A stretch of 21,190 nt of DNA from Leptospiraceae bacterium (GTDB taxonomy: Bacteria > Spirochaetota > Leptospiria > Leptospirales > Leptospiraceae), in assembly GCA_024233875.1 (NCBI GenBank), contig JACKPB010000009.1, positions 1 to 21,190 on the forward strand. The letters run 5' to 3'. This document shows, one piece after another, positions 3,066 through 14,548 of this stretch; within the stretch, counting starts at the first letter, position 1, and each line of letters opens with the position of its first letter. The notes under the pieces were generated by a model. The model made no database searches, was not told the DNA's origin, and saw only the letters and a program-made list of their open reading frames with translations. A program made the translations under genes and the position numbers.

Positions 3066-3099
3066 AAGCTTCTTACATCAATTTAATAAGAAGCTTTTG
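3066..3099 (+). terminator. Perfect 10-bp inverted repeat AAGCTTCTTA…TAAGAAGCTT with an 11-nt loop, followed by TTTTG. Either an intrinsic-terminator-like hairpin or an operator. It lies about 115 bp upstream of the lipoprotein gene.
   Basis: Read directly from the sequence. Confidence 0.35.
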
Positions 3100-3214
3100 T
3101 ATCAAATGGTGTTCAGAAACCTTACGGTTCCTTAATTAAGTGTTTAGCCACTGAATACTAGATTCATCTGAAAAGGTGCAAACCTTTTCAAAATGAGTAG
3201 GGAAAACAGATTGA

Positions 3215-3715
3215 ATGAAATCTATGGAAAATTTGCTTAATAATTCAACAAAACTTATTTTAATGATTGTACTGATCTCTAGTATCTATGATTGCAGTTC
3301 GAGTTCGGGAGAAAATAATTCAGCCGGGGATCTATTGTTTCTAGTCCAGAGGGAACAAACCGTAACCGCCACCAATAAAGAAAAGCAATCCAGCACGACT
3401 CCAAATGCTACTCCTGCATCCAATTACTTTACCCTTGCGATCTCCAACCAAACCACAAGCTCCGAAGCATGGATCATGTATTCTGACTCTACTTGCACTA
3501 CCCGGATTTATTCTTTCGGAACAGTAGCCTCTTCGAGCATTACTGCCTATATCAAATTTTACAATAGTTCGACTTACTATTTTAAGATTGGAGATTTCTG
3601 TCAGAAGAATAGCTATACCTTCAATATTGGAAGCAATTACCAGTGTTTGAGTGAGACTTCCTCCTGGGGTTGCTCTACTGTAGCAGCTAGTTCTACATCT
3701 ATTCAGGAACAATAA
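3215..3715 (+). CDS. Hypothetical secreted protein or lipoprotein, Ser/Thr-rich.
   Basis: 166-aa ORF. N-terminal signal peptide MKSMENLLNNSTKLILMIVLISSIYDCSSSSG with a Cys after the hydrophobic core, consistent with a loose spirochaete lipobox. AGGGAAAACAGATTGA lies upstream. Confidence 0.5.
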   Translation: MKSMENLLNNSTKLILMIVLISSIYDCSSSSGENNSAGDLLFLVQREQTVTATNKEKQSSTTPNATPASNYFTLAISNQTTSSEAWIMYSDSTCTTRIYSFGTVASSSITAYIKFYNSSTYYFKIGDFCQKNSYTFNIGSNYQCLSETSSWGCSTVAASSTSIQEQ

Positions 3716-3756
3716 ATATGAAATCCCCTGTGGATTTATAAAAGGAACCTATCGAA

Positions 3757-5979
3757 ATGAAACGATTACTTCTCATTACTCTAATAATTTACTTTTTATC
3801 CAATTGCAACCCGGCAGGGGAAACAGCTGACGATACCAAAACAAATTTACTTTTCTTCTTAAATAAAGTCAGCCGAGCGACAGTATCGGGCAAGGCGATG
3901 AAGGGAAGGATCAGCAATGGAAAGGTGAACGTCTATGCGACCTCAACCACAGGAACCTGTGACACAACTACCTCTCTCGGTACAACTACTACAGACCTCG
4001 AAGGCAATTATGAAGTGAATTTCACAAAGACAGGCTATCCGGTTTGTGTGATCGTAACACCCGGTACTGATTCCAAGATGTATGATGAGGCACAGAAGAA
4101 AGACCTCAATTGGACGGGGTCTGCATCGATGACCATCATCATCAACGAACCGAAGACAGCAAGGAAAGGTGTCAACGGGACTCCATTTGCCAGGTTTGCC
4201 GCCGCAAGATTCCAGGAGATAGCAAAATCGAATTCAGGGCGTTCTGCGATTGCGGATCAGGTGACCTATGCCAACAAGACAACAGTTGTCCAATTTGGAT
4301 TGAATCGTTCCTTCATTAGAAGACCCGAAGTGATGTTTGACAAGATCACCAAGATTGATATGGATACGATTCCTGATGTACTCTCAGAGGAAATTGATTT
4401 GGATGATAAGACCAACAATACATCCACATACATGACGGCATTTCTGGGGGGTATCTCAACAAAGGCAAAGGATTACAAGGGGAATGCTGAAGGTTCCGCA
4501 GATTACATTGAATCCTTTTTGGATGCTCTTTCAAAAGATCTGGCGGATGGGAAGGCGGATGGAAAGGATGCAACCGGAACAACAGTAACAGTCTCCGTAG
4601 ACGGAACACCTACAGCAGTTCCGACCATTACAGAAATCAAAGCCGCTGTGCTAACCTATGCCGCATCCAATCCAGGATTGGGGATCACAACAACAGAGAT
4701 TCAGAACACAACAGTTGTAGACGCACCCGTATTTGTACAGTCCACCCCTGTTAGTGTTGGGACTACAACCACAGCTTCAGGAACATTCACAATCGGAGGG
4801 ACCATTTCCGGCCTCACTGCTTCCGGTCTGGTTCTCCAGAACAATGCGGGTGACAATCTAACTGTGGCAAGCGGGGCTACGAGCTTTACTTTTGCGACCG
4901 CTCTAGCAAGTGGTGCGGCTTACTCTGTAACTGTATTGGCTCAGCCTTCCGGACAGACCTGTACCGTATCAGCTGGTTCAGGAACAACTTCAGCGAATGT
5001 AACAAATGTAAGTGTGAGTTGTACTTCCATGAATATAACAGGAGCTGTTACTACTATTGCGGGAACGGTAGGAGTATCAGGTTCTACCGATGGCACAGGA
5101 ACCGGTGCCACATTTAACGGACCTCGTGGTATTGCAACAGATGGGACAAATTTATATATAGCTGACTATGGAGCTGCTATTATAAGAAAGGTGGTTATAT
5201 CTACGGGTGTGGTTACTAAGATTGCGGGAACAGCGGGGTCTACAGGTACAACAGATGGAGCGGGAGCTTCAGCTCTTTTTTGGGGACCGATTAGTCTTGC
5301 TTTTGCGGGATCAAATTTATATATCGCCGAACTAGAGAATGCTAGAATTCGAAAATTGGATACAACTACGAATACAGTATCAACTATAACTACAGCTATA
5401 CTCAAACCGTATGGAATCACTACAGATGGAACTAATCTTTATGTAGCCAGTTATAACACTGAGAATAAAATATATAAGATTCCAATATCTACAGGTGTAC
5501 CGGCTGTACTCGCAGGAAATGGTACTTTAGCATCCACAGATAATGCGACAGGAACATCTGCATCATTTAATGGTCCGGTGGGAATGGCAACTGATGGAAC
5601 GAATGTATACGTATCAGAAGCTGGCTCTGCAATACGAAAAGTCAGTATATCATCTGGCGCTGTAAGTACTATAGCAGGTTTGAACAGCTCTACCGGAACA
5701 ACAGATGCTACAGGAACAAGCGCTAGATTCAATCAACCTATCGGTATGTATTGTTATGGAAACTACCTTTATGTAGCTGATTATGCGAATCATTCTATTC
5801 GGAAAATAGATACCTCTTCATTGGTAGTGACTACAATAGCCGGGTCAAGTGGAACAACCGGAAGTTCCGATGGTACAGGTACTTCGGCAAGATTCAATTA
5901 TCCTTTCGGAATCACGTCTGATGGGACATACCTATATGTAGCGGATTATGTAAATCAAACTATCCGAAGAATACAATAG
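3757..5979 (+). CDS. NHL-repeat (six-bladed beta-propeller) lipoprotein with a Thr/Gly-rich low-complexity linker. Putative surface protein.
   Basis: 740-aa ORF. Signal peptide plus lipobox (MKRLLLITLIIYFLSNC). The C-terminal half carries at least six repeats of the form G.TDGTG..A.FN.P.GI..DGTNLY[IV]ADY.N..IRKI, characteristic of NHL repeats. Confidence 0.8.
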   Translation: MKRLLLITLIIYFLSNCNPAGETADDTKTNLLFFLNKVSRATVSGKAMKGRISNGKVNVYATSTTGTCDTTTSLGTTTTDLEGNYEVNFTKTGYPVCVIVTPGTDSKMYDEAQKKDLNWTGSASMTIIINEPKTARKGVNGTPFARFAAARFQEIAKSNSGRSAIADQVTYANKTTVVQFGLNRSFIRRPEVMFDKITKIDMDTIPDVLSEEIDLDDKTNNTSTYMTAFLGGISTKAKDYKGNAEGSADYIESFLDALSKDLADGKADGKDATGTTVTVSVDGTPTAVPTITEIKAAVLTYAASNPGLGITTTEIQNTTVVDAPVFVQSTPVSVGTTTTASGTFTIGGTISGLTASGLVLQNNAGDNLTVASGATSFTFATALASGAAYSVTVLAQPSGQTCTVSAGSGTTSANVTNVSVSCTSMNITGAVTTIAGTVGVSGSTDGTGTGATFNGPRGIATDGTNLYIADYGAAIIRKVVISTGVVTKIAGTAGSTGTTDGAGASALFWGPISLAFAGSNLYIAELENARIRKLDTTTNTVSTITTAILKPYGITTDGTNLYVASYNTENKIYKIPISTGVPAVLAGNGTLASTDNATGTSASFNGPVGMATDGTNVYVSEAGSAIRKVSISSGAVSTIAGLNSSTGTTDATGTSARFNQPIGMYCYGNYLYVADYANHSIRKIDTSSLVVTTIAGSSGTTGSSDGTGTSARFNYPFGITSDGTYLYVADYVNQTIRRIQ

Positions 5980-6172
5980 GAATTCATTCAATTGGAATTT
6001 GATTCTATAGAAAGTAAATAGAAATGTCTACATTTCTGAAAATGATCAATATGTTATGTAAGGACTGCCCCGCTGCGGATACAATTTGAATTTATTTAAC
6101 TCATCTAACGCAGTATTTTATTTTTTAAATTTTTTTTGTTTAAAATCAAAATCATTTTTTGCTAATAAATCA

Positions 6173-6258
6173 ATAAAAATATGGGTTTGGGCGATAGCCC
6201 AAGCTGCCGGCAGGCTCCCTGCAACCTCACATTTCGCTTCTTTGCGTAATGTGAGTTA
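6173..6258 (+). other. Structured intergenic element, copy 2. An A-rich box CAATAAAAATATGGGTTTGGGC and a hairpin TTGGGC-GATA-GCCCAA, followed by hairpin CTCACATT-(CGC TTCTTT GCG)-T-AATGTGAG.
   Basis: Read directly from the sequence. It parallels the element at 2921-2985 and lies immediately upstream of the repeat array. Confidence 0.35.
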
Positions 6259-7109
6259 TTTAAATAGATCGGTGCTGGTGTCTGACAGTGGGGCAGGACA
6301 AGATTCATTCCGGAAAACATTTTTTCGAAAGGATAATTTTTCCGCATTGTCGTAAACCCAAAATCACCACCAAGGGAAACATCCTTAGTAATTTATTGAG
6401 TTCACATCCATTTTCGAGTGAAAGGATGGAAATTTGCCCTTCGGCTACGCTCAGGGATCGAAAAAGTTTCTCAGCAATACAAATAAAACCTTCTTCAAAA
6501 CCGGGATCTCGATACAATTTTTACAATAACTGTAATACGAATACAAAAGGAGATCCCGACAGATTTTTTCAAAAGGGAAAAAATCACTCGATCACCGAAT
6601 CCTTCGAAAAAAAGAAGAAGCTTCCATCCAAAGTATCCCCCAACCAAAAACCAGCCTTTCAATGATGCCTTTCTCAGAGAATCCAAGGTTGTGCAGCCCA
6701 AACATCTCGGAACAAAAATTTAGAGATGTCGGATCTGTTTCCGACTCTCGTTTTTTGTATCGCCTGCCCGGCTCGAGGGCACAGAAGAATTCTCATTATC
6801 AAGAATATCTTAATACATTAGAGAAAGCTTACGAGCACTTTTGGATAAGCAGCAACCTTGAGATGAAAGAGAAGGTTTAGCATCATTGAAAGTTGAACCT
6901 AAGAAGACCCCGCGTCAGCGGACATCCTTCGAAAAAAAGAAGAAGCTTCCAACCTAAGTATCCCCCAATAAAAAACCAGCCTTTCCATCCTGATTCTACA
7001 GAAATACAGGTTCCACAGCTGAAACTTCTCGGAGCAAAAATTTAGAGATGTCGGGTCTTTTTCCGACTCTCGTTTTTTGCCCGAAAGTTTCAAGCGAAAG
7101 GAACCTTGT

Positions 7110-7292
7110 ATGACGATAGAGCATCAGGAGGGAAAGTTGAAGACAAGAAGACCCCGCGTCAGCGGACATCCTTCGAAAAAAAGAAGAAGCTTCCATCCAA
7201 AGTATCCCCCAACCAAAAACCAGCCTTTCAATGATGCCTTTCTCAGAGAATCCAAGGTTGTGCAGCCCAAACATCTCGGAACAAAAATTTAG
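7110..7292 (+). CDS. Candidate minigene in a 243-bp unit. It would encode a 60-aa highly basic peptide (MTIEHQEGKLKTRRPRVSGHPSKKRRSFHPKYPP…LGTKI).
   Basis: AAGGA sits 7 nt upstream of the ATG (gcgAAAGGAaccttgtATG). The TAG stop at 7290-7292 is immediately followed by the hairpin and T-run. Paralogs recur elsewhere in the array. Translation is unproven. Confidence 0.3.
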   Translation: MTIEHQEGKLKTRRPRVSGHPSKKRRSFHPKYPPTKNQPFNDAFLRESKVVQPKHLGTKI

Positions 7293-9184
7293 AGATGTCG
7301 GATCTGTTTCCGACTCTCGTTTTTTGTATCGCCTGCCCGGCTCGAGGGCACAGAAGAATTCTCATTATCAAGAATATCTTAATACATTAGAGAAAGCTTA
7401 CGAGCACTTTTGGATAAGCAGCAACCTTGAGATGAAAGAGAAGGTTTAGCATCATTGAAAGTTGAAGACAAGAAGACCCCGCGTCAGCGGACATCCTTCG
7501 AAAAAAAGAAGAAGCTTCCATCCAAAGTATCCCCCAACCAAAAACCAGCCTTTCAATGATGCCTTTCTCAGAGAATCCAAGGTTGTGCAGCCCAAACATC
7601 TCGGAACAAAAATTTAGAGATGTCGGATCTGTTTCCGACTCTCGTTTTTTGTATCGCCTGCCCGGCTCGAGGGCACAGAAGAATTCTCATTATCAAGAAT
7701 ATCTTAATACATTAGAGAAAGCTTACGAGCACTTTTGGATAAGCAGCAACCTTGAGATGAAAGAGAAGGTTTAGCATCATTGAAAGTTGAAGACAAGAAG
7801 ACCCCGCGTCAGCGGACATCCTTCGAAAAAAAGAAGAAGCTTCCAACCTAAGTATCCCCCAACCAAAAACCAGCCTTTCAATGATGCCTTTCTCAGAGAA
7901 TCCAAGGTTGTGCAGCCCAAACATCTCAGAACAAAAATTTAGAGATAGCCTGCCCGGCTCGAGGGCAATGAAGAATTTTCCTTTATAATAAGATTTAAAC
8001 TCAATTGCCGAAGAAGCCACCCGTAATACAAATAAAACCGTCTCCAAAACCGGGATCTCGATACAATTTTTACAATAACTGTAATACAAACCTAAAACGG
8101 GATGAAGGTAGATCTTGTCAAAAAGGGAAAAAATCACTCGATCACCGAATCCTTCGAATTGAAGAAGAGGCTTCCAACTAAAGAATCCCCCAATAAAAAA
8201 CCAGCCTTTCAATGATGCCTTTCTCAGAGAATCCAAGGTTGTGCAGCCCAAACATCTCAGAACAAAAATTTAGAGATGTCGGATCTGTTTCCGACTCTCG
8301 TTTTTTGTGGAGAGATTTTGGATAAGCAGCAACCTTGAGATGAAAGAGAAGGTTTAGCATCATTGAAAGTTGAACCTAAGAAGACTCCGCGTCAGCGGAC
8401 ATACTTCGATCAGAAGAAGAGGCTCCATGCAATGGAAAGTTGAAGACAAGAAGACCCCGCGTCAGCGGACATCCTTCGAAAAGAAGAAGAGGCTTCCAAC
8501 CTAAGTATCCCCCAATAAAAAACCAGCCTTTCAATGATGCCTTTCTCAGAGAATCCAAGGTTGTGCAGCCCAAACATCTCGGAACAAAAATTTAGAGATG
8601 TCGGATCTGTTTCCGACTCTCGTTTTTTGTATCGCCTGCCCGGCTCGAGGGCACAGAAGAATTCTCATTATCAAGAATATCTTAATACATTAGAGAAAGC
8701 TTACGAGCACTTTTGGATAAGCAGCAACCTTGAGATGAAAGAGAAGGTTTAGCATCATTGAAAGTTGAAGACAAGAAGACCCCGCGTCAGCGGACATCCT
8801 TCGAAAAAAAGAAGAAGCTTCCAACCTAAGTATCCCCCAATAAAAAACCAGCCTTTCCATCCTGATTCTTAGGAAATACAGGTTCCGAAGCCGAAATCTT
8901 ATGGATCAAAAATTTAGAGATAGCCTGCCCGGCTAGAGGGCACAGGAATATTTTTTACGACAGAAATTTTTAAAACAACTATCAAATTACATACCGACTA
9001 CTTTGAATCTGTTCTCCGACTCTCGTTTTTTGCCCGAAAGTTTCGAGCGAAAGGAACCTTGAATAACGAGAGAGCATCAGGATGGAAAGTTGAACCGAAG
9101 AAGACCCCGCGTCAGCGGTAAAAACAAAAGTCCTTCGATCAGAATAAAATGCTCCCATGCAATGGTGAGCCGAACCCCAACCCT

Positions 9185-9224
9185 AAAAAAAAAAGCCCGC
9201 TATTTTACGATAGCGAGCTTTTTG
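9185..9224. terminator. Bidirectional terminator-like hairpin AAAAAAAAAA-GCCCGCTAT-TTTAC-GATAGCGAGC-TTTTTG, just outside the IS66 end.
   Basis: A 6-7 bp stem flanked by an A-run on one side and a T-run on the other, read directly from the sequence. Confidence 0.4.
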
Positions 9225-9286
9225 TAGTATTGCAAAATATCCCGGCAGTACTTCGACTATCGCTCAGTATAAACGTAAGCGCAAAT

Positions 9287-10915
9287 TTAACCCCATCCAA
9301 GGATGGATTTGAAAAGAGTTTCGGCTTCCTCTGAGGTATTGCAGGTCGGCAATTTTGAGAAGAACTCGATAGCGGCATCCTGAGGATTCAATCCGTTGGC
9401 TTTAAATGTTTGTAATATGGATAGATACATCGCCGAAGCTTCTGCTCCTTCCGGAACGTCCGCAAATAACCAATTCTTCCTACCCAGAACAAATGGACGG
9501 ATGGCATTTTCTACAAGGTTGTTATCAATATAGATTTCACCATTGTCCAAATAGAGTATAATCTTTTTCCATTCTTTCAGAGCATAGTTCACTGCGACTC
9601 TCAGTCCATTGGATTTCTTCGGATTCTGCGATTCCATAAGAATTTGATTGTAAAGATGATCCATTAGAGGCTTGGATTCTCTCTGTCTGATTTTTACAAT
9701 CTCCGCAAAATTTCCATTCCTGTAGTAATCATGATTTCTAATTTTCTTCTCGACGTCATACAATTTCTTAATGGTAAATAAGATCTTTTCTGCTGATTTT
9801 TCATTGGATGCCTTGAACGAATTTTCAAATTTCCGTCTGACATGAGCAAGACATCCGGCAAGCAGGATTTCAGGTGTCTCTTTCAAATGAGCATTGTATG
9901 TCGCCAAACCATCAGCCTGAATGAAGCCTTCATATCCATTCAAGAATTCCTTTAAAAACTCAGCCGATCTCGATGTTCGATATTGATAATAAATGATCGG
10001 TTTGTCCGGTCTTCCTCCACGGAATACCCACATATAGGATACAGAAGTATTCTTCCTATCTTTTTCTTTATGAACCTGATAGTTCGTTTCATCCACTCCG
10101 ATCATCCTTCCGCTCTTCACAAGTTTAGGGAAAAAGGATAATAATTCCAGATACAGCAAATACACTCCGATTACCCAATTACTCATCGTGCTTCTCGGTA
10201 TCTCAATTTTACTCCGGAGCAACATTTCCGACAATCGGTAAAAAGGTATACCATCCAACCACTTGGCAATCAAGAGGAAGACTAGTGTTTCTACCGTCAG
10301 ATTGCTACCGGGGTAGATCTGGGGAGTTTTGTATGGAGCAGTTACAATGATTTTTCCGGCTTCATTTCTTTCATCCCCTTTGCAATGATTGCATGTGTAT
10401 TTAGCCCTTCTGTGCTGTCTTACATAGACCTGAGGAGGAACGATTACAATCTGCTCGGATACTTCCGGTTCTATTTCTGTCAATCTGTGACCGCAATTAC
10501 ATGTCTTTTCTTCTTCAGGAATATCATGTTTTTCTTCCACTCTCTTTAAGTGATCGGGAAGTGCTTTTCGTCCTACTTTCTTTCTTGTATGGGATTTGAC
10601 TTCTACTTCATCCGAATGGGATTCGAAAAGGGTTTTTTCATCATGCAATCCCAATTCTGCTTCGTTAAAGAAGAGATCCTGATAGTAAATAGATGGATCT
10701 ATTTTCTCGGACTTTCTTCCGAATTGCATCCTTCGGAGCTCTTCGAACATATCCTTCAATTTTTCAATAGCTCTATCCCTTTCGGTTATACCATGTTGAA
10801 GGGCATTGATTTTATTTTGTTTTTGAATGATTTCTTTTTTGAATTGGGTTTGGATTTGTAATACAATTTTCTTTAGTTCTTCGGGATCATCGGGGAGATT
10901 TTCAGGAAGTTGCAC
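9287..10915 (-). CDS. tnpC: IS66-family transposase TnpC.
   Basis: 542-aa ORF. N-terminal coiled-coil or leucine-zipper-like region, zinc-finger Cys clusters (CNCGH…, CNHCKGD), then a DDE catalytic region typical of IS66 TnpC. Confidence 0.8.
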   Translation of the reverse strand: MQLPENLPDDPEELKKIVLQIQTQFKKEIIQKQNKINALQHGITERDRAIEKLKDMFEELRRMQFGRKSEKIDPSIYYQDLFFNEAELGLHDEKTLFESHSDEVEVKSHTRKKVGRKALPDHLKRVEEKHDIPEEEKTCNCGHRLTEIEPEVSEQIVIVPPQVYVRQHRRAKYTCNHCKGDERNEAGKIIVTAPYKTPQIYPGSNLTVETLVFLLIAKWLDGIPFYRLSEMLLRSKIEIPRSTMSNWVIGVYLLYLELLSFFPKLVKSGRMIGVDETNYQVHKEKDRKNTSVSYMWVFRGGRPDKPIIYYQYRTSRSAEFLKEFLNGYEGFIQADGLATYNAHLKETPEILLAGCLAHVRRKFENSFKASNEKSAEKILFTIKKLYDVEKKIRNHDYYRNGNFAEIVKIRQRESKPLMDHLYNQILMESQNPKKSNGLRVAVNYALKEWKKIILYLDNGEIYIDNNLVENAIRPFVLGRKNWLFADVPEGAEASAMYLSILQTFKANGLNPQDAAIEFFSKLPTCNTSEEAETLFKSILGWG

Positions 10916-10960
10916 GGTGACAATATGGAATCAATTGTAGTACCGTACAACTACTTTTTT

Positions 10961-11308
10961 TTATTCATTAGGAAAAATTAATTCTCTATGCTCCTTTCTG
11001 AAATCAATTCCTCTCAATAACCAGTTCAATTCTCTTCTGGATATAGTTACTCTATCCATTGATCCGGAGGGCCATGCAAATTGTCCTTTTTCCAATTTCT
11101 TCTGCCAGATGCAGAATCCATTTCCATCCCAGTAGAATATTTTGATCAGTTTTCGGGAATGTCCGCTAAAGAGAAACAAGGAACGACTATATGGATCCAG
11201 ATTCATCTCCTCCTTTATGATTCCATACAATCCATTCCATGACTTTCTCATGTCGGTATAGCCCGTTCTGATGTATACTTTCAATTTCAATGGATCGCGG
11301 AGAATCAT
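10961..11308 (-). CDS. tnpB: IS66 Orf2 (TnpB) accessory protein.
   Basis: 115 aa. The conserved YIRTGYTDMRKSWNGL…FLFSG…K(L)IKI(FY)WDGNGF signature of IS66 TnpB. Overlaps tnpA by 4 nt (ATGA). Confidence 0.8.
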   Translation of the reverse strand: MILRDPLKLKVYIRTGYTDMRKSWNGLYGIIKEEMNLDPYSRSLFLFSGHSRKLIKIFYWDGNGFCIWQKKLEKGQFAWPSGSMDRVTISRRELNWLLRGIDFRKEHRELIFPNE

Positions 11309-11580
11309 TGCGGTTTCCTGATTCGAATAGTAATCCCGGAGTTATTCTCTATTTGAATCGAAACTTCTAAAGGAGATTGAGAAAATTCAGGTTCAGGCTC
11401 TTCTATCTTAACCGGAAGTATTGTTTTTATACGATGATTTACTGTTTCCTTCGCATATTTATATCTCCAATTCGAAAAGGAATCTACAGTTATATCATTC
11501 TCGCGACAATAGGCTCGGATACTTTTACCGCTCTTCTGCCAGTTCTTAACATGCTTTTTCATTATTGTATGTTTATCCAT
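11305..11580 (-). CDS. tnpA: IS66 Orf1 (TnpA), helix-turn-helix protein.
   Basis: 91 aa, first gene of the IS66 operon. Its reading frame overlaps tnpB by 4 nt. Confidence 0.7.
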   Translation of the reverse strand: MDKHTIMKKHVKNWQKSGKSIRAYCRENDITVDSFSNWRYKYAKETVNHRIKTILPVKIEEPEPEFSQSPLEVSIQIENNSGITIRIRKPQ

Positions 11581-11652
11581 AATGGATAGTATAACAGAAA
11601 ATCAGATTTTGAAAACCTGTGGGAGTTTTAGCGCTTACGAAAGGAACCTTGT

Positions 11653-11835
11653 ATGACGATAGAGCATCAGGAGGGAAAGTTGAAGACAAGAAGACCCCGC
11701 GTCAGCGGACATCCTTCGAAAAAAAGAAGAAGCTTCCAACCTAAGTATCCCCCAACCAAAAACCAGCCTTTCAATGATGCCTTTCTCAGAGAATCCAAGG
11801 TTGTGCAGCCCAAACATCTCGGAACAAAAATTTAG
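11653..11835 (+). CDS. Candidate minigene encoding a 60-aa basic peptide, paralog of 7110-7292.
   Basis: AAGGA Shine-Dalgarno sequence, ATG, TAG at 11833-11835, then the hairpin GTCGGATCTGTTTCCGAC and a T-run. Confidence 0.3.
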   Translation: MTIEHQEGKLKTRRPRVSGHPSKKRRSFQPKYPPTKNQPFNDAFLRESKVVQPKHLGTKI

Positions 11836-12221
11836 AGATGTCGGATCTGTTTCCGACTCTCGTTTTTTGTATCGCCTGCCCGGCTCGAGGGCACAGAAGA
11901 ATTCTCATTATCAAGAATATCTTAATACATTAGAGAAAGCTTACGAGCACTTTTGGATAAGCAGCAACCTTGAGATGAAAGAGAAGGTTTAGCATCATTG
12001 AAAGTTGAAGACAAGAAGACCCCGCGTCAGCGGACATCCTTCGAAAAAAAGAAGAAGCTTCCAACCTAAGTATCCCCCAATAAAAAACCAGCCTTTCCAT
12101 CCTGATTCTACAGAAATACAGGTTCCACAGCTGAAACTTCTCGGAGCAAAAATTTAGAGATGTCGGGTCTTTTTCCGACTCTCGTTTTTTGCCCGAAAGT
12201 TTCAAGCGAAAGGAACCTTGT

Positions 12222-12401
12222 ATGACGATAGAACATCAGGATGGAAAGTTGAACCTAAGAAGACTCCGCGTCAGCGGACATCCTTCGAAAAAAAGAAGAA
12301 GCTTCCAACCTAAGTATCCCCCAATAAAAAACCAGCCTTTCCATCCTGACTCAAAGGAAATACAGGTTCCACAGCTGAAACTTCTCGGAGCAAAAATTTA
12401 G
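12222..12401 (+). CDS. Candidate minigene encoding a 59-aa basic peptide, a divergent allele ending …HPDSKEIQVPQLKLLGAKI. A further diverged copy lies at 12466-12627.
   Basis: Same Shine-Dalgarno/ATG/stop/hairpin architecture. The C-terminal half differs from the other copies by substitutions only, so frame and stop position are preserved. Confidence 0.3.
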   Translation: MTIEHQDGKLNLRRLRVSGHPSKKRRSFQPKYPPIKNQPFHPDSKEIQVPQLKLLGAKI

Positions 12402-12657
12402 AGATGTCGGGTCTTTTTCCGACTCTCGTTTTTTGCCCGAAAGTTTCGAGCGAAAGGAACCTTGTATGACGATAGAACATCAGGAGGGAAAGTTGAACCT
12501 AAGAAGACTCCGCGTCAGCGGACATACTTCGATCAGAAGAAGAGGCTCCATGCAATGGAAAGTTGAAGACAAGAAGACCCCGCGTCAGCTGACATCCTTC
12601 GATCAGAAAAAGATACAATGGAATTGATGAATACAACCACAAAAAAAAATTCCCCAC

Positions 12658-12695
12658 TCATGAGTAGTTTAAAGTTGACTTTAAACTACTCATGA
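12658..12695. promoter_or_regulatory. Perfect 18-bp palindrome TCATGAGTAGTTTAAAGT-TG-ACTTTAAACTACTCATGA, 17 bp upstream of the ATPase start. A candidate operator or a strong hairpin.
   Basis: Read directly from the sequence. A partial third copy TTTAAAGTCAA follows at 12700-12710. Confidence 0.5.
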
Positions 12696-12711
12696 ATAAT
12701 TTAAAGTCAAT

Positions 12712-13851
12712 ATGAAAAAACTCAGATATCTTTTCTCTCCAATCCAGGACACTCTCACGAAGAAAATGGTCTTTGTGGGTGGTCCGAGACAGGTAGGAAA
12801 AACAACTCTTGCTCTGCAGTTTCTAAAACCACCAAGTATTCAAAATCCCGCATATCTGAATTGGGATTTCAATTCAGATAAATTGCAAATTTTAAGAGAC
12901 GAGTTTGCCCTTCAAAACAATAAAATTCTAGTTTTCGATGAGTTGCATAAGTACTCAAAGTGGAGAAATTTGATTAAGGGTTTGTATGACAAATATAACG
13001 AGAAAAATCAATTCATAATTACGGGATCAGCAAGACTGGATTATTTTCGAAAAGGAGGTGATTCCCTTTTGGGAAGATACCGATATTTCAGACTCCATCC
13101 TTTTTCCCTGATGGAAATGAATAAAAATCCCAGCAAAACTGATTTAGAAACACTTTTAAAATTTGGAGGTTTTCCCGAGCCCCTACTCTCACAAAATGAG
13201 AAAGAGCACCGGATCTGGAAGAATGACAGAATGATCAAGGTTGCCTCTGAAGACATCCGGGACCTTGAAAATATTAAGGACGTTTCCTCTATGCTACTTC
13301 TTGCAGAACTTCTCCCTTCCAGAGTAGGGTCTCCCCTTTCTTTAAAAAGTTTGTCCGAGGATTTAAACGTATCACAACCTACCGTTGATCGATGGATAGA
13401 AATTTTGTCTACACTATACTATTGCTATGCAATCCTTCCTTTTGGTTCTCCCAAAATAAGAGCGGTGAAAAAATTAAAAAAAGTTTATCTTTGGGACTGG
13501 TCACAGGTAGAAGAATTAGGATTTCGATTTGAAAATCTGGTAGCGGGTCATTTACTTAAGTACTGTAATTTCATATCAGATACCGAAGGCTATCCAATGG
13601 AAGTTCGGTATTTACGCGATACAGATGGAAGAGAAATAGACTTTGTGGTTCTGAAGAATAAAAAACCTATTTTTGCAGTAGAATGCAAAACAGGTGAAAA
13701 ATCTCTAAGTCCGAGTATTTCTTATTTCAAAGAAAGAACAGAAATTCCCGAGTTTTTCCAGGTTCATTTGGGCACAAAAGATTTTGGTTCCAATCAAACA
13801 GGAAGGGTATTGCCATTCCAAAAATTTTGCCGGGAAAAGGTTTTAGTTTGA
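12712..13851 (+). CDS. AAA-family ATPase of the AAA_14/DUF4143-type architecture (orphan 'ATP-binding protein' family).
   Basis: 379 aa. Walker A GGPRQVGKTT, a Walker B-like VFDELHK, then a C-terminal region of the kind seen in DUF4143 proteins. The gene is embedded between blocks of the repeat array. Confidence 0.65.
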   Translation: MKKLRYLFSPIQDTLTKKMVFVGGPRQVGKTTLALQFLKPPSIQNPAYLNWDFNSDKLQILRDEFALQNNKILVFDELHKYSKWRNLIKGLYDKYNEKNQFIITGSARLDYFRKGGDSLLGRYRYFRLHPFSLMEMNKNPSKTDLETLLKFGGFPEPLLSQNEKEHRIWKNDRMIKVASEDIRDLENIKDVSSMLLLAELLPSRVGSPLSLKSLSEDLNVSQPTVDRWIEILSTLYYCYAILPFGSPKIRAVKKLKKVYLWDWSQVEELGFRFENLVAGHLLKYCNFISDTEGYPMEVRYLRDTDGREIDFVVLKNKKPIFAVECKTGEKSLSPSISYFKERTEIPEFFQVHLGTKDFGSNQTGRVLPFQKFCREKVLV

Positions 13852-13859
13852 TATACAAA

Positions 13860-14420
13860 TATAACCTTGTTCTAAACCGGGATCTCGATACAATTTTTAA
13901 CCACCCCCTGCCCCCTCCAAAGGAGAGGAGTCCCTAGATGAAATATTTTATCTATTAAGTATTTTTGCTATCCACAGCAAATTAAATCTTTCAATCAGAA
14001 AAAAGGCTTCCAACCAAAATATCCTCCAATAAATAACCAGCCTTTCCATCCTGACTCAAAGAAAATACAGGTTTCATATCCGAAATCTTATGGATCAAAA
14101 ATTTAGAGATAGCCCGCCCGGCTGGAGGGCACAGGAATATACTATGTGACAGAAATTTTAAAACAACCTACAAGTTATATATCGACTACTTAAGATCTGT
14201 TCTCTGACTCTCGTTTTTTGAATCGCCTGTCCGGCTCGAGGACACGGAAGAATATCCGCCCAATAGAGATTCTTATTTTCGAGAGCAAATTGTATCGACA
14301 ACTTTCGAGCGAAAGGAACCTTGTATTACGATAGAGCCACAGGATGGAAAGTTGTCCTTCGACTACGCTCAGGCGAAATTGACCCATGTCAGAGGTTATA
14401 AAATTCTTCTCCATAACCTG
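13860..14420. repeat. Degenerate distal block of the repeat array (terminal, diverged units).
   Basis: Diverged copies of modules seen at 8840-9040 (…AACCAGCCTTTCCATCCTGACTCAAAG…GATCAAAAATTTAGAGATAGCC…) and of the motif AAACCGGGATCTCGATACAATTTTTA (also at 6501 and 8039). The stretch ends with GGATGGAAAGTTGTCCTTCGACTACGCTCAGG, which mirrors 6425-6460. Confidence 0.75.
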
Positions 14421-14548
14421 GATCTCGATAATATTTTTACAAAAATAAAAAATCTTATTGAATTTATCCTAAACCTGATAACTAATTCAAAAATTGAAAT
14501 GAGATTTTATGTTCCTATGAACTTGTTCATCAAAAGACCGGAAGATAA

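Follow-up and report, generated by a model that had tools for sequence, protein, structure and literature searches.

A single gene lies within a long array of repeats in a 21,190-nucleotide stretch of Leptospiraceae bacterium DNA (assembly GCA_024233875.1, contig JACKPB010000009.1, positions 1 to 21,190; hereafter, the window). The gene, an intact open reading frame (ORF) at 12712-13851 on the plus strand, encodes 379 amino acids plus a stop codon, and a perfect 18-bp inverted repeat precedes it. A previous interpretation made from the letters alone (the sequence-only reading) assigned the protein to the AAA_14/DUF4143 ATPases. It proposed that the palindrome is either an operator for a dimeric repressor or a hairpin insulating the gene from read-through out of the array, and that the gene is either functionally linked to the array or a cargo insertion. 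Here, we find that the palindrome is part of a multi-arm element that is conserved across phyla and overlaps the putative promoter of the gene. We propose that the element is an operator through which the ATPase may control its own expression.

The family assignment holds. Specifically, a profile search places both domains far above their Pfam gathering scores: AAA_14 matches residues 17-136 (3.3e-25, 89.0 bits, cut-off 27) and DUF4143 matches residues 180-327 (2.8e-25, 89.3 bits, cut-off 28.1). DUF4143 follows AAA_14, the order seen in the family, and the Walker A motif GGPRQVGKTT is present. By its profile matches and motifs, the protein is a member of the AAA_14/DUF4143 (COG1373) family, with a predicted AAA+ ATPase, winged helix, and PD-(D/E)xK nuclease domain. 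Residues G23, G24, R26, K30, T31, D76, and E77 are unvarying in an alignment of 83 homologs, and the Walker motifs are kept down to 44% identity. The winged helix includes LSEDLNVSQPTVDRWIEIL, with SQPTVDRWIEIL as the putative recognition helix. In the nuclease core, D310, E324, and K326 are unvarying in homolog alignments and constitute the PD-(D/E)xK signature; profile matches to this domain are weak (Pfam HSDR_N and PADLOC Csx1 and CARF_PDDEXK), and a published listing of the PD-(D/E)XK superfamily includes DUF4143 (PMC3424549). An AlphaFold2 model built from the 83-sequence alignment is confident, with a pLDDT of 88.9 and a pTM of 0.90. PADLOC assigns the protein to PDC-S01 (PDLC04790, 3.6e-47; PDLC04789, 2.3e-42; four models below 1e-27). 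A sequence search of the PDB with the 379-residue protein returned no meaningful match, and no NCBIfam model matches it.

The perfect 18-bp inverted repeat is borne out, and far exceeds chance expectation: the window holds three matches to the half-site with three or fewer mismatches, against 0.03 expected. Its halves, TCATGAGTAGTTTAAAGT and ACTTTAAACTACTCATGA, are separated by a 2-nt gap, and the right arm ends 16 nt 5' of the ATG (Table 1). The repeat exists as claimed; the conserved core, however, sits one arm downstream. Comparison with orthologs shows that the perfect repeat arises where a distal arm meets the left arm of the core palindrome. The whole element comprises three to four arms of 15-18 bp each, which alternate in orientation with a 32-bp period; Tandem Repeats Finder reports 2.2 copies of a 32-bp unit. 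Arm 3 overlaps arm 2 via a common TCATGA and includes TTTAAAGTCAA at 12700-12710, which had earlier been noticed as a third, half-site-like sequence. In the window, the core palindrome carries two mismatches, both in its right arm.

Table 1. Features of the ATPase locus, in window coordinates.
Feature	Position	Strand	Remarks
Left-flank array units	11997-12633	+	244-bp units plus a short unit; repeat families D3, D4, D8
Non-array insert, ~1.22 kb	12634-13852	+	21-nt linker with A9 run, putative operator-promoter, gene
Arm 1 (distal), TCATGAGTAGTTTAAAGT	12658-12675	+	left half of perfect 18-bp repeat
Putative -35, TTGACT	12675-12680	+	unvarying in five close orthologs, including the TTG outside the palindrome
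Arm 2, ACTTTAAACTACTCATGA on plus strand	12678-12695	-	right half of 18-bp repeat and left half of core palindrome
Core 30-bp palindrome (putative operator), halves ACTTTAAACTACTCA and TGAATAATTTAAAGT	12678-12707	.	centered on TCATGA; 13/15 positions symmetric
Arm 3 (proximal), TCATGAATAATTTAAAGT	12690-12707	+	2 mismatches to arm 1; orientation of arm 1
Putative -10, TAATTT	12697-12702	+	16-nt spacer from -35; 9 nt to ATG; read from sequence
Weak arm 4, ATATGAAAAAACTCAGAT	12710-12727	-	over start codon and codons 2-5; pair of 32-nt arms, 78% complementary
Walker A, GGPRQVGKTT	12778-12807	+	residues 23-32
Walker B, DELHK			residues 76-80
Winged helix-turn-helix coding segment	13282-13491	+	residues about 191-260
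PD-(D/E)xK nuclease core (predicted)	13597-13707	+	residues 296-332: D310 ... E324-C-K326
D9 boundary repeat	13853-13899	+	directly abuts the ATPase stop codon
Right-flank array units	13900-14440	+	D5 13988-14170, D7, D8 14300-14354, D11, degenerate D9 14393-14439

The element recurs upstream of orthologs that otherwise share no surroundings. Ortholog loci were collected by protein look-ups, one protein at a time, and scans of genomes and metagenomes gave 8 and 11 relatives. Orthologs of 71-79% amino-acid identity occupy unrelated neighborhoods in Leptospiraceae and Bdellovibrionaceae: L013 (79% identity) is embedded in an array with many toxin-antitoxin genes, L028 follows helix-turn-helix (HTH) genes (HTH_3, HTH_36), L030 is flanked by a tail-fiber-like gene and hutU, and L032 and L035 are surrounded by housekeeping genes. 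Common to these five loci is the upstream sequence TTGACTTTAAACTACTCATGAGTAGTTTAAAGT-N4-ATG. The core in L032 is a perfect 30-bp palindrome centered on TCATGA, and L013, L028, and L030 carry one to three changes. Arms are positioned at -34 and -19 relative to the ATG in the window and in L013, L028, L030, and L032, with a further arm at -51 in the window and L028. Two loci from Bdellovibrionaceae metagenome-assembled genomes (MAGs), L033 and L034 (73% and 72% amino-acid identity, respectively), have four arms each. Arm 1 is near-perfect in L033 and perfect in L034, and the latter possesses the exact 18-bp inverted repeat of the window with another 2-nt spacer. Arm 4 is stronger in L001 (ATGAAACTACTCAGAT), L033, and L034 than in the window.

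We compared five close orthologs base by base, without gaps, as mean pairwise nucleotide identity. The segment from -41 to -1 is 83% identical and the segment from +1 to +21 is 85% identical, compared to 69% for the rest of the coding sequence, 43% for third codon positions, 33% for -100 to -42, and 27% after the stop codon. Thus, the element belongs to the gene and not to the array. By this measure, the non-coding element is under stronger constraint than the protein-coding DNA, the mark of purifying selection. The exact core, TACTCATGAGTA, is found at ATPase promoters only. Elsewhere in the 282 kb of collected DNA, there are 12 arm matches, 10 with three mismatches and 2 with two. The window array has no arm copies, and viral contigs contain no match to either the arm pattern or the array motif.

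The position of the core is that expected of an operator. It reaches from the TTGACT region to 4 nt before the ATG and overlaps the putative -35 and -10 hexamers, as autoregulation requires. The candidate -10 reads TAGTTT in most orthologs. A promoter scan calls TTGACT as the -35 in L033 (TTGACT-16-TACAAT, 10/12, ending 7 nt before the ATG) and in L034 (TTGACT-18-TAAAAT, 10/12), and it calls TTGCAA-16-CATAAT in L045. Of 27 homolog loci, 16 have a TAnnnT hexamer ending 6-10 nt upstream of the start codon, against 1-11 (mean ~4) in other 5-nt bins, and a Shine-Dalgarno-like motif is present in only one. No Shine-Dalgarno motif precedes the ATG of the window gene. Because the putative -10 ends 9 nt before the ATG and a Shine-Dalgarno motif is absent, the ATPase mRNA is probably leaderless or nearly so. 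This arrangement bears on annotation. Within 12712-12768, NCBI starts the gene (protein P0002) at M19, which yields a 361-residue product beginning MVFVGGPRQ. The NCBI call is probably wrong, since homologs conserve the 18 residues upstream and the putative promoter-operator directly precedes the ATG at 12712.

A palindrome so close to a start codon could instead act in RNA. Were the gene transcribed from upstream, for example by read-through from the array, a hairpin in the 5' leader could mask the start region and tune translation or stability. The window palindrome does form a strong hairpin (-15.3 kcal/mol, z = -5.6, with 0/200 shuffles as good), the right arm of the core ends 4 nt short of the ATG, and there is no Shine-Dalgarno motif. 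However, the unvarying TTGACT is followed at 16-18 nt by -10-like hexamers, and the array units upstream have terminator-like hairpins of their own. Moreover, differences between arms are uncompensated, with the window, L013, L028, and L030 each changed in one arm only, and homologs of 44-61% identity carry direct repeats. Because direct repeats cannot fold and the inter-arm differences in orthologs are uncompensated, the element is better understood as a protein-DNA site than as a hairpin. We consider action at the RNA level very unlikely.

Which protein could bind such a site? Comparison among more distant homologs offers a lead. Homologs of 57-61% identity keep a TACTC-NN-GAGTA core, often, as in L002, L015, and L016/17, in the form of two tandem 34-38-bp units, each with TTGACT. 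Clades of 44-49% identity (L004/18, L005, L006/19-22, L007, and L023) possess quite different direct or inverted repeats. Plasmid homologs of ~25% identity (L040-L049; Granulicella, Meiothermus, Thioflavicoccus, Rhizobium, Shinella, Thiothrix, Neorhizobium, Phaeobacter, and Runella) have in common a compact and almost identical putative promoter, CCTTGCAA-N16/17-(C/T)ATAAT-like-N-TTGCAAGG-ATG, in which the start codon abuts the right arm. Their hosts are Alpha- and Gammaproteobacteria, Bacteroidota, Deinococcota, and Acidobacteriota, which we count as five phyla. The first residues of the putative recognition helix also vary by clade (SQP, SHE, DHK, HHQ, NFR, AHK, and AYN), while Walker A, Walker B, and the D-E-K residues are fixed. 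Together, clade-specific repeats and clade-specific recognition helices point to autoregulation by the protein's own winged helix. No conserved neighboring regulator gene is seen in any ortholog context, which makes that winged helix the likeliest binder. The arms are phased at 32 bp, close to three turns of the helix, a spacing suggestive of cooperative binding along one face of the DNA.

The binder's identity is nonetheless deduced, and the operator could belong to a different protein, either a host regulator or a regulator encoded elsewhere. Candidates can be found, in that HTH genes lie nearby in L028 and in L034 (HTH_19). Against such a binder, gene and element have moved together between Spirochaetota and Bdellovibrionota and into unrelated neighborhoods that share no conserved neighbor, and the repeat sequence changes with the ATPase clade. 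We judge it decidedly unlikely that a protein other than the ATPase is the cognate binder.

A further possibility grants that the ATPase binds the arms and assigns them another role. Specifically, the arms could be a working DNA target, a platform on which an AAA+/STAND-like oligomer assembles, much as with the ORB elements for Orc1/Cdc6 or the filaments of MuB and TnsC. Such a platform could serve in sensing, in anchoring the nuclease on "self" DNA, or in nuclease-driven spread of the gene together with its site, with autoregulation as a by-product. The regular 32-bp recurrence of up to four arms fits this notion. So does the conserved unit, which begins at about -51, ends at the stop codon, and has hardly any flank across very different contexts and phyla; PDC genes, too, were defined by their embedding in other loci (bioRxiv 10.1101/2024.01.29.577857). 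However, the arms are invariably found where an operator needs to be, over the -35/-10 region and the start codon, and neither the 3' end of the gene nor any other place has arms. Furthermore, no target-site duplication or empty site was found, and some intact orthologs (L026, L001) lack the arms. We regard a platform whose primary role is not regulation as unlikely.

We now turn to the surroundings of the gene. The array spans about 6470-14440 and is a mosaic of 325-bp and 244-bp units. As the sequence-only reading stated, it lies on both sides of the gene, with families D3, D4, and D8 on the left and D9, D5, D7, D8, and D11 on the right. Array homology ends at ~12633 and begins again a single nucleotide past the stop codon. 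The intervening insert matches nothing else in the window except the D9 copies and the element's own arms. D9 (ATACAAATA..GGGATCTCGATACAATTTTTA) occurs at 6477 (the left end of the array), 8026 (internal), 13853, and 14393 (the right end, degenerate), and no ortholog locus from another organism contains it. Each array unit carries a plus-strand terminator-like hairpin, GTCGG..CCGAC followed by TCTCGTTTTTTG, and the units may be small transcription units. Eight array ORFs, including a 72-residue "minigene" ORF present in four copies, have no Pfam match, and the supposed minigene array looks non-coding.

The array also harbors an IS66 element at 9277-11638, composed of tnpA (9287-10915, minus strand, 542 amino acids), tnpB (10961-11308, minus strand), and an ORF of 91 amino acids (11305-11580, minus strand), with ends GTAAGCGC at about 9277 and 11638. 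The 8 bp flanking it differ (GTATAAAC versus GAAAGGAA), so that there is no target-site duplication, which suggests later rearrangement or deletion beside the element. The presence of IS66 shows that the array tolerates insertions. Other neighbors in the window are an NHL-repeat gene and TRL genes, and the gene does not have a defense or toxin-antitoxin location there; L013 and L034 sit among toxin-antitoxin and AbiE-type genes.

Among ten distinct contexts of close orthologs, arrays are seen in two, the window and L013, and these two arrays show no detectable similarity to each other. The ATPase gene is, therefore, cargo, and its embedding in the array is incidental and not a trait of the family. 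The cargo alternative of the sequence-only reading is upheld by the eight of ten contexts that lack an array and by the IS66 element in this one. Its other alternative, a functional link to the array, fares poorly given the same count, the dissimilarity of the two arrays, and the lack of arm copies in the array. The grounds for refutation that it named receive a divided answer: orthologs do keep the palindrome upstream, but they do not as a rule co-occur with such repeats. By blastn, the window array has no similarity to the L013 array or to any other locus. There are no ATPase remnants elsewhere in the window array, no target-site duplication is seen around the ATPase insert, and neither the array units nor the ATPase gene match plasmids at the DNA level.

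These data also bear on the proposal that the hairpin is an insulator or terminator shielding the gene from the array, or that the ATPase has a functional tie to the array, whose repeats it might, for instance, maintain or act on. Flanking units on both sides of the gene invite this interpretation, as does L013, where the ortholog also lies between structured repeats, in a cassette-like toxin-antitoxin array. In addition, on the minus strand at 12641-12698, the palindrome followed by GGGGAATTTTTTTTT (a T9 run) meets terminator-like criteria, with a 20-pair stem containing 5 GC pairs; no minus-strand gene lies upstream of this site. On the plus strand, by contrast, the palindrome receives no terminator call; of its 20 stem pairs, 5 are GC, and the sequence that follows is ATAATTTAAAG. 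Insulation of the gene from read-through fails because the plus-strand hairpin has no T-run, and in distant clades the direct repeats make a hairpin impossible. Furthermore, the A9/T9 run is not conserved, lying in the poorly conserved region upstream of -41; the array lacks arm-like sites; the window and L013 arrays are unrelated by detectable similarity; most close-ortholog contexts have no repeats; and IS66 shows that insertions into this array are tolerated. An insulating or terminating role of the hairpin and a functional tie of the ATPase to the array are both most improbable.

The layout of the array is to be treated with caution, because a second assembly of the same organism (L009, 1-1228, compared with window 11498-12711) is 99.4% identical downstream and orders the array units differently, and because two Logan contigs (L010, L011) end in or beside repeats on either side of the gene. 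Assembly may account for part of the layout seen in the window, or the layout may differ within the population. Among homologs P0003-P0120, those with 66-79% amino-acid identity come from Leptospiraceae as well as Bdellovibrionota/Oligoflexia MAGs, and many of their contigs barely exceed the length of the gene. This distribution suggests recent inter-phylum transfer or repeat-rich flanks.

The L013 array (3280-9260; JGI 3300035703, Ga0310140_0005675) is cassette-like. Composite repeats separate modules encoding PIN/VapB, HEPN/NTase, the ATPase, PIN/VapB, and YafQ/Phd. Each repeat has a structured hairpin element of ~190 nt (z -5.1), with no canonical attC core and no Rfam match. At 8734-8835 is what remains of a second ATPase copy, a decayed 3' fragment. 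One stretch of the window resembles this array: 7961-8001, in a truncated unit before the internal D9, is similar to L013 4931-4976, a repeat end plus the start of the ATPase promoter (TTTCCTTTATAAT ... TTTAAACT). The local alignment score of 16 is reached by 1/300 shuffles, and the likeness could be the scar of an earlier ATPase cassette, a sign of distant kinship between the arrays, or chance. Rfam searches of the window and L013 gave only sub-threshold chance matches, and no tRNA genes were found. Among these matches, RAGATH-23 at window 3086-3198 (plus strand; 28.1 bits versus a gathering score of 92.6, E 0.078), just upstream of an unannotated 166-residue ORF (3215-3715) and the NHL-repeat gene, is probably due to chance.

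Integrons come to mind for such loci, in that the window gene occupies a repeat-bounded slot and toxin-antitoxin modules fill neighboring slots in L013; unlike integron cassettes, most orthologs lie outside arrays. An attC-like reading of the window array finds little support, as neither an RYYYAAC/GTTRRRY pair nor a conserved attC-like fold turned up at the unit boundaries. The last unit (14297-14357) alone has a complementary ACAAC...GTTGT; other units have direct GAAAGTT repeats, and their folds are not significant. The ORFs scanned in the 21-kb window encode no integron integrase domain.

Taken together, the evidence leads us to favor, with some reserve, the following explanation: the locus is a self-contained single-gene module carried as cargo in a non-coding array, and the palindrome is part of the gene's own promoter-operator, autoregulated by the ATPase. 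The notion is that the ATPase, in dimeric or higher oligomeric form, would use its own winged helix to bind the arms and so would occlude RNA polymerase. A potentially toxic nuclease would thereby be held at a low, self-limited level. The earlier proposal of an operator for a dimeric repressor thus survives, though modified: the palindrome forms one part of an element that overlaps the putative promoter and is conserved across phyla. The sequences show directly the layout of the element, its conservation at set positions in orthologs, and the domain architecture of the protein. We infer the promoter assignment, the leaderless start, the ATPase as binder, and repression upon binding from comparisons of sequence.

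Several points weigh against autoregulation as we propose it. The ortholog sample is small and partly non-independent, and the link between helix and repeat comes from about 10 clades read by eye. The promoter scan did not flag the window site, where TAATTT agrees with 3/6 consensus positions. In L001/L012 (85% identity), an 8-bp insertion separates the arms, and L026 (78% identity) has lost the element; the element is, therefore, dispensable in some lineages. Finally, the L034 arms lie ~100 nt upstream, ahead of a leader with a Shine-Dalgarno motif, showing that the leaderless layout is not universal.

Operators of a comparable design exist in restriction-modification systems. In the C-protein systems C.PvuII, C.AhdI, and C.Esp1396I, a gene that encodes, or lies ahead of, a potentially toxic nuclease has paired palindromic boxes across its promoter, C-protein dimers bind adjacent palindromes cooperatively, and the pvuIIC transcript is leaderless. 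Unlike those systems, the locus described here has no separate small HTH regulator, the candidate binder being the 379-residue ATPase-nuclease itself, and no methyltransferase partner, and its arms, at 15-18 bp, are longer and recur with 32-bp phasing. Analogous to the window protein, the archaeal proteins SSO1545 (PDB 2fna), PABY2304 (PDB 2qen), and Orc1/Cdc6 have an AAA+ core followed by a winged HTH, and Orc1/Cdc6 genes adjoin their own repeated binding sites, as the ATPase gene would. However, identity to the archaeal ATPases is 13-18%, and the window protein has an additional predicted PD-(D/E)xK domain. Moreover, nothing points to a replicon or origin here, and the repeats coincide with the putative promoter.

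The closest relatives by class are the PDC-S01 genes. PDC-S01 is a "phage defense candidate" class, which is defined by the occasional embedding of its members in loci of BREX, DISARM, or type I restriction-modification systems (bioRxiv 10.1101/2024.01.29.577857). A representative challenged with T4, T5, and T7 was not protective (bioRxiv 10.1101/2024.09.26.614923). AAA_14/DUF4143 (PDC-S01) is reported to rank as the fourth most common "defense" type across prokaryotes (PMC12988326). The likeness of the window gene to this class lies in the strong HMM match, in the architecture of ATPase plus PD-(D/E)xK, which is also theirs (PMC12988326, PMC3424549), and in being a single-gene module found in varied contexts, often of toxin-antitoxin or defense type (L013, L034). 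The difference is that the window gene lies inside a non-coding repeat array and not beside defense genes. Our literature searches for DUF4143, COG1373, AAA_14, and PDC-S01 found no functional, mechanistic, or regulatory study, and we found no description of the conserved multi-arm promoter-operator in the searchable literature.

For the window itself, the outcome is deflationary: the gene is an ordinary intact member of its family, and its embedding in the array is incidental. The worthwhile part is the conserved multi-arm element, a putative promoter-operator that appears to travel with the gene. We can also imagine a bolder scheme, to which we assign a low probability. PDC-S01-type ATPase-nucleases would be sequence-specific DNA-binding machines that carry their cognate site in their own leaderless promoter, with the phased arms as an oligomerization platform and specificity co-evolving with the recognition helix. 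The gene-plus-site unit of ~1.2 kb would spread autonomously between phyla, possibly by means of its own nuclease, into permissive places such as repeat arrays and defense operons. If so, such spread would explain why the family is so frequently found "embedded."

AAA_14/DUF4143 (PDC-S01) proteins are very abundant. Here, a cis element of ~60 bp is more conserved than the coding sequence it accompanies, and distant clades carry different repeats. The position of the putative promoter-operator provides a practical means to correct start-codon calls. If the element is the protein's own binding site, each member of the family would bring along its DNA recognition sequence, and that sequence would give a direct experimental handle on the family.

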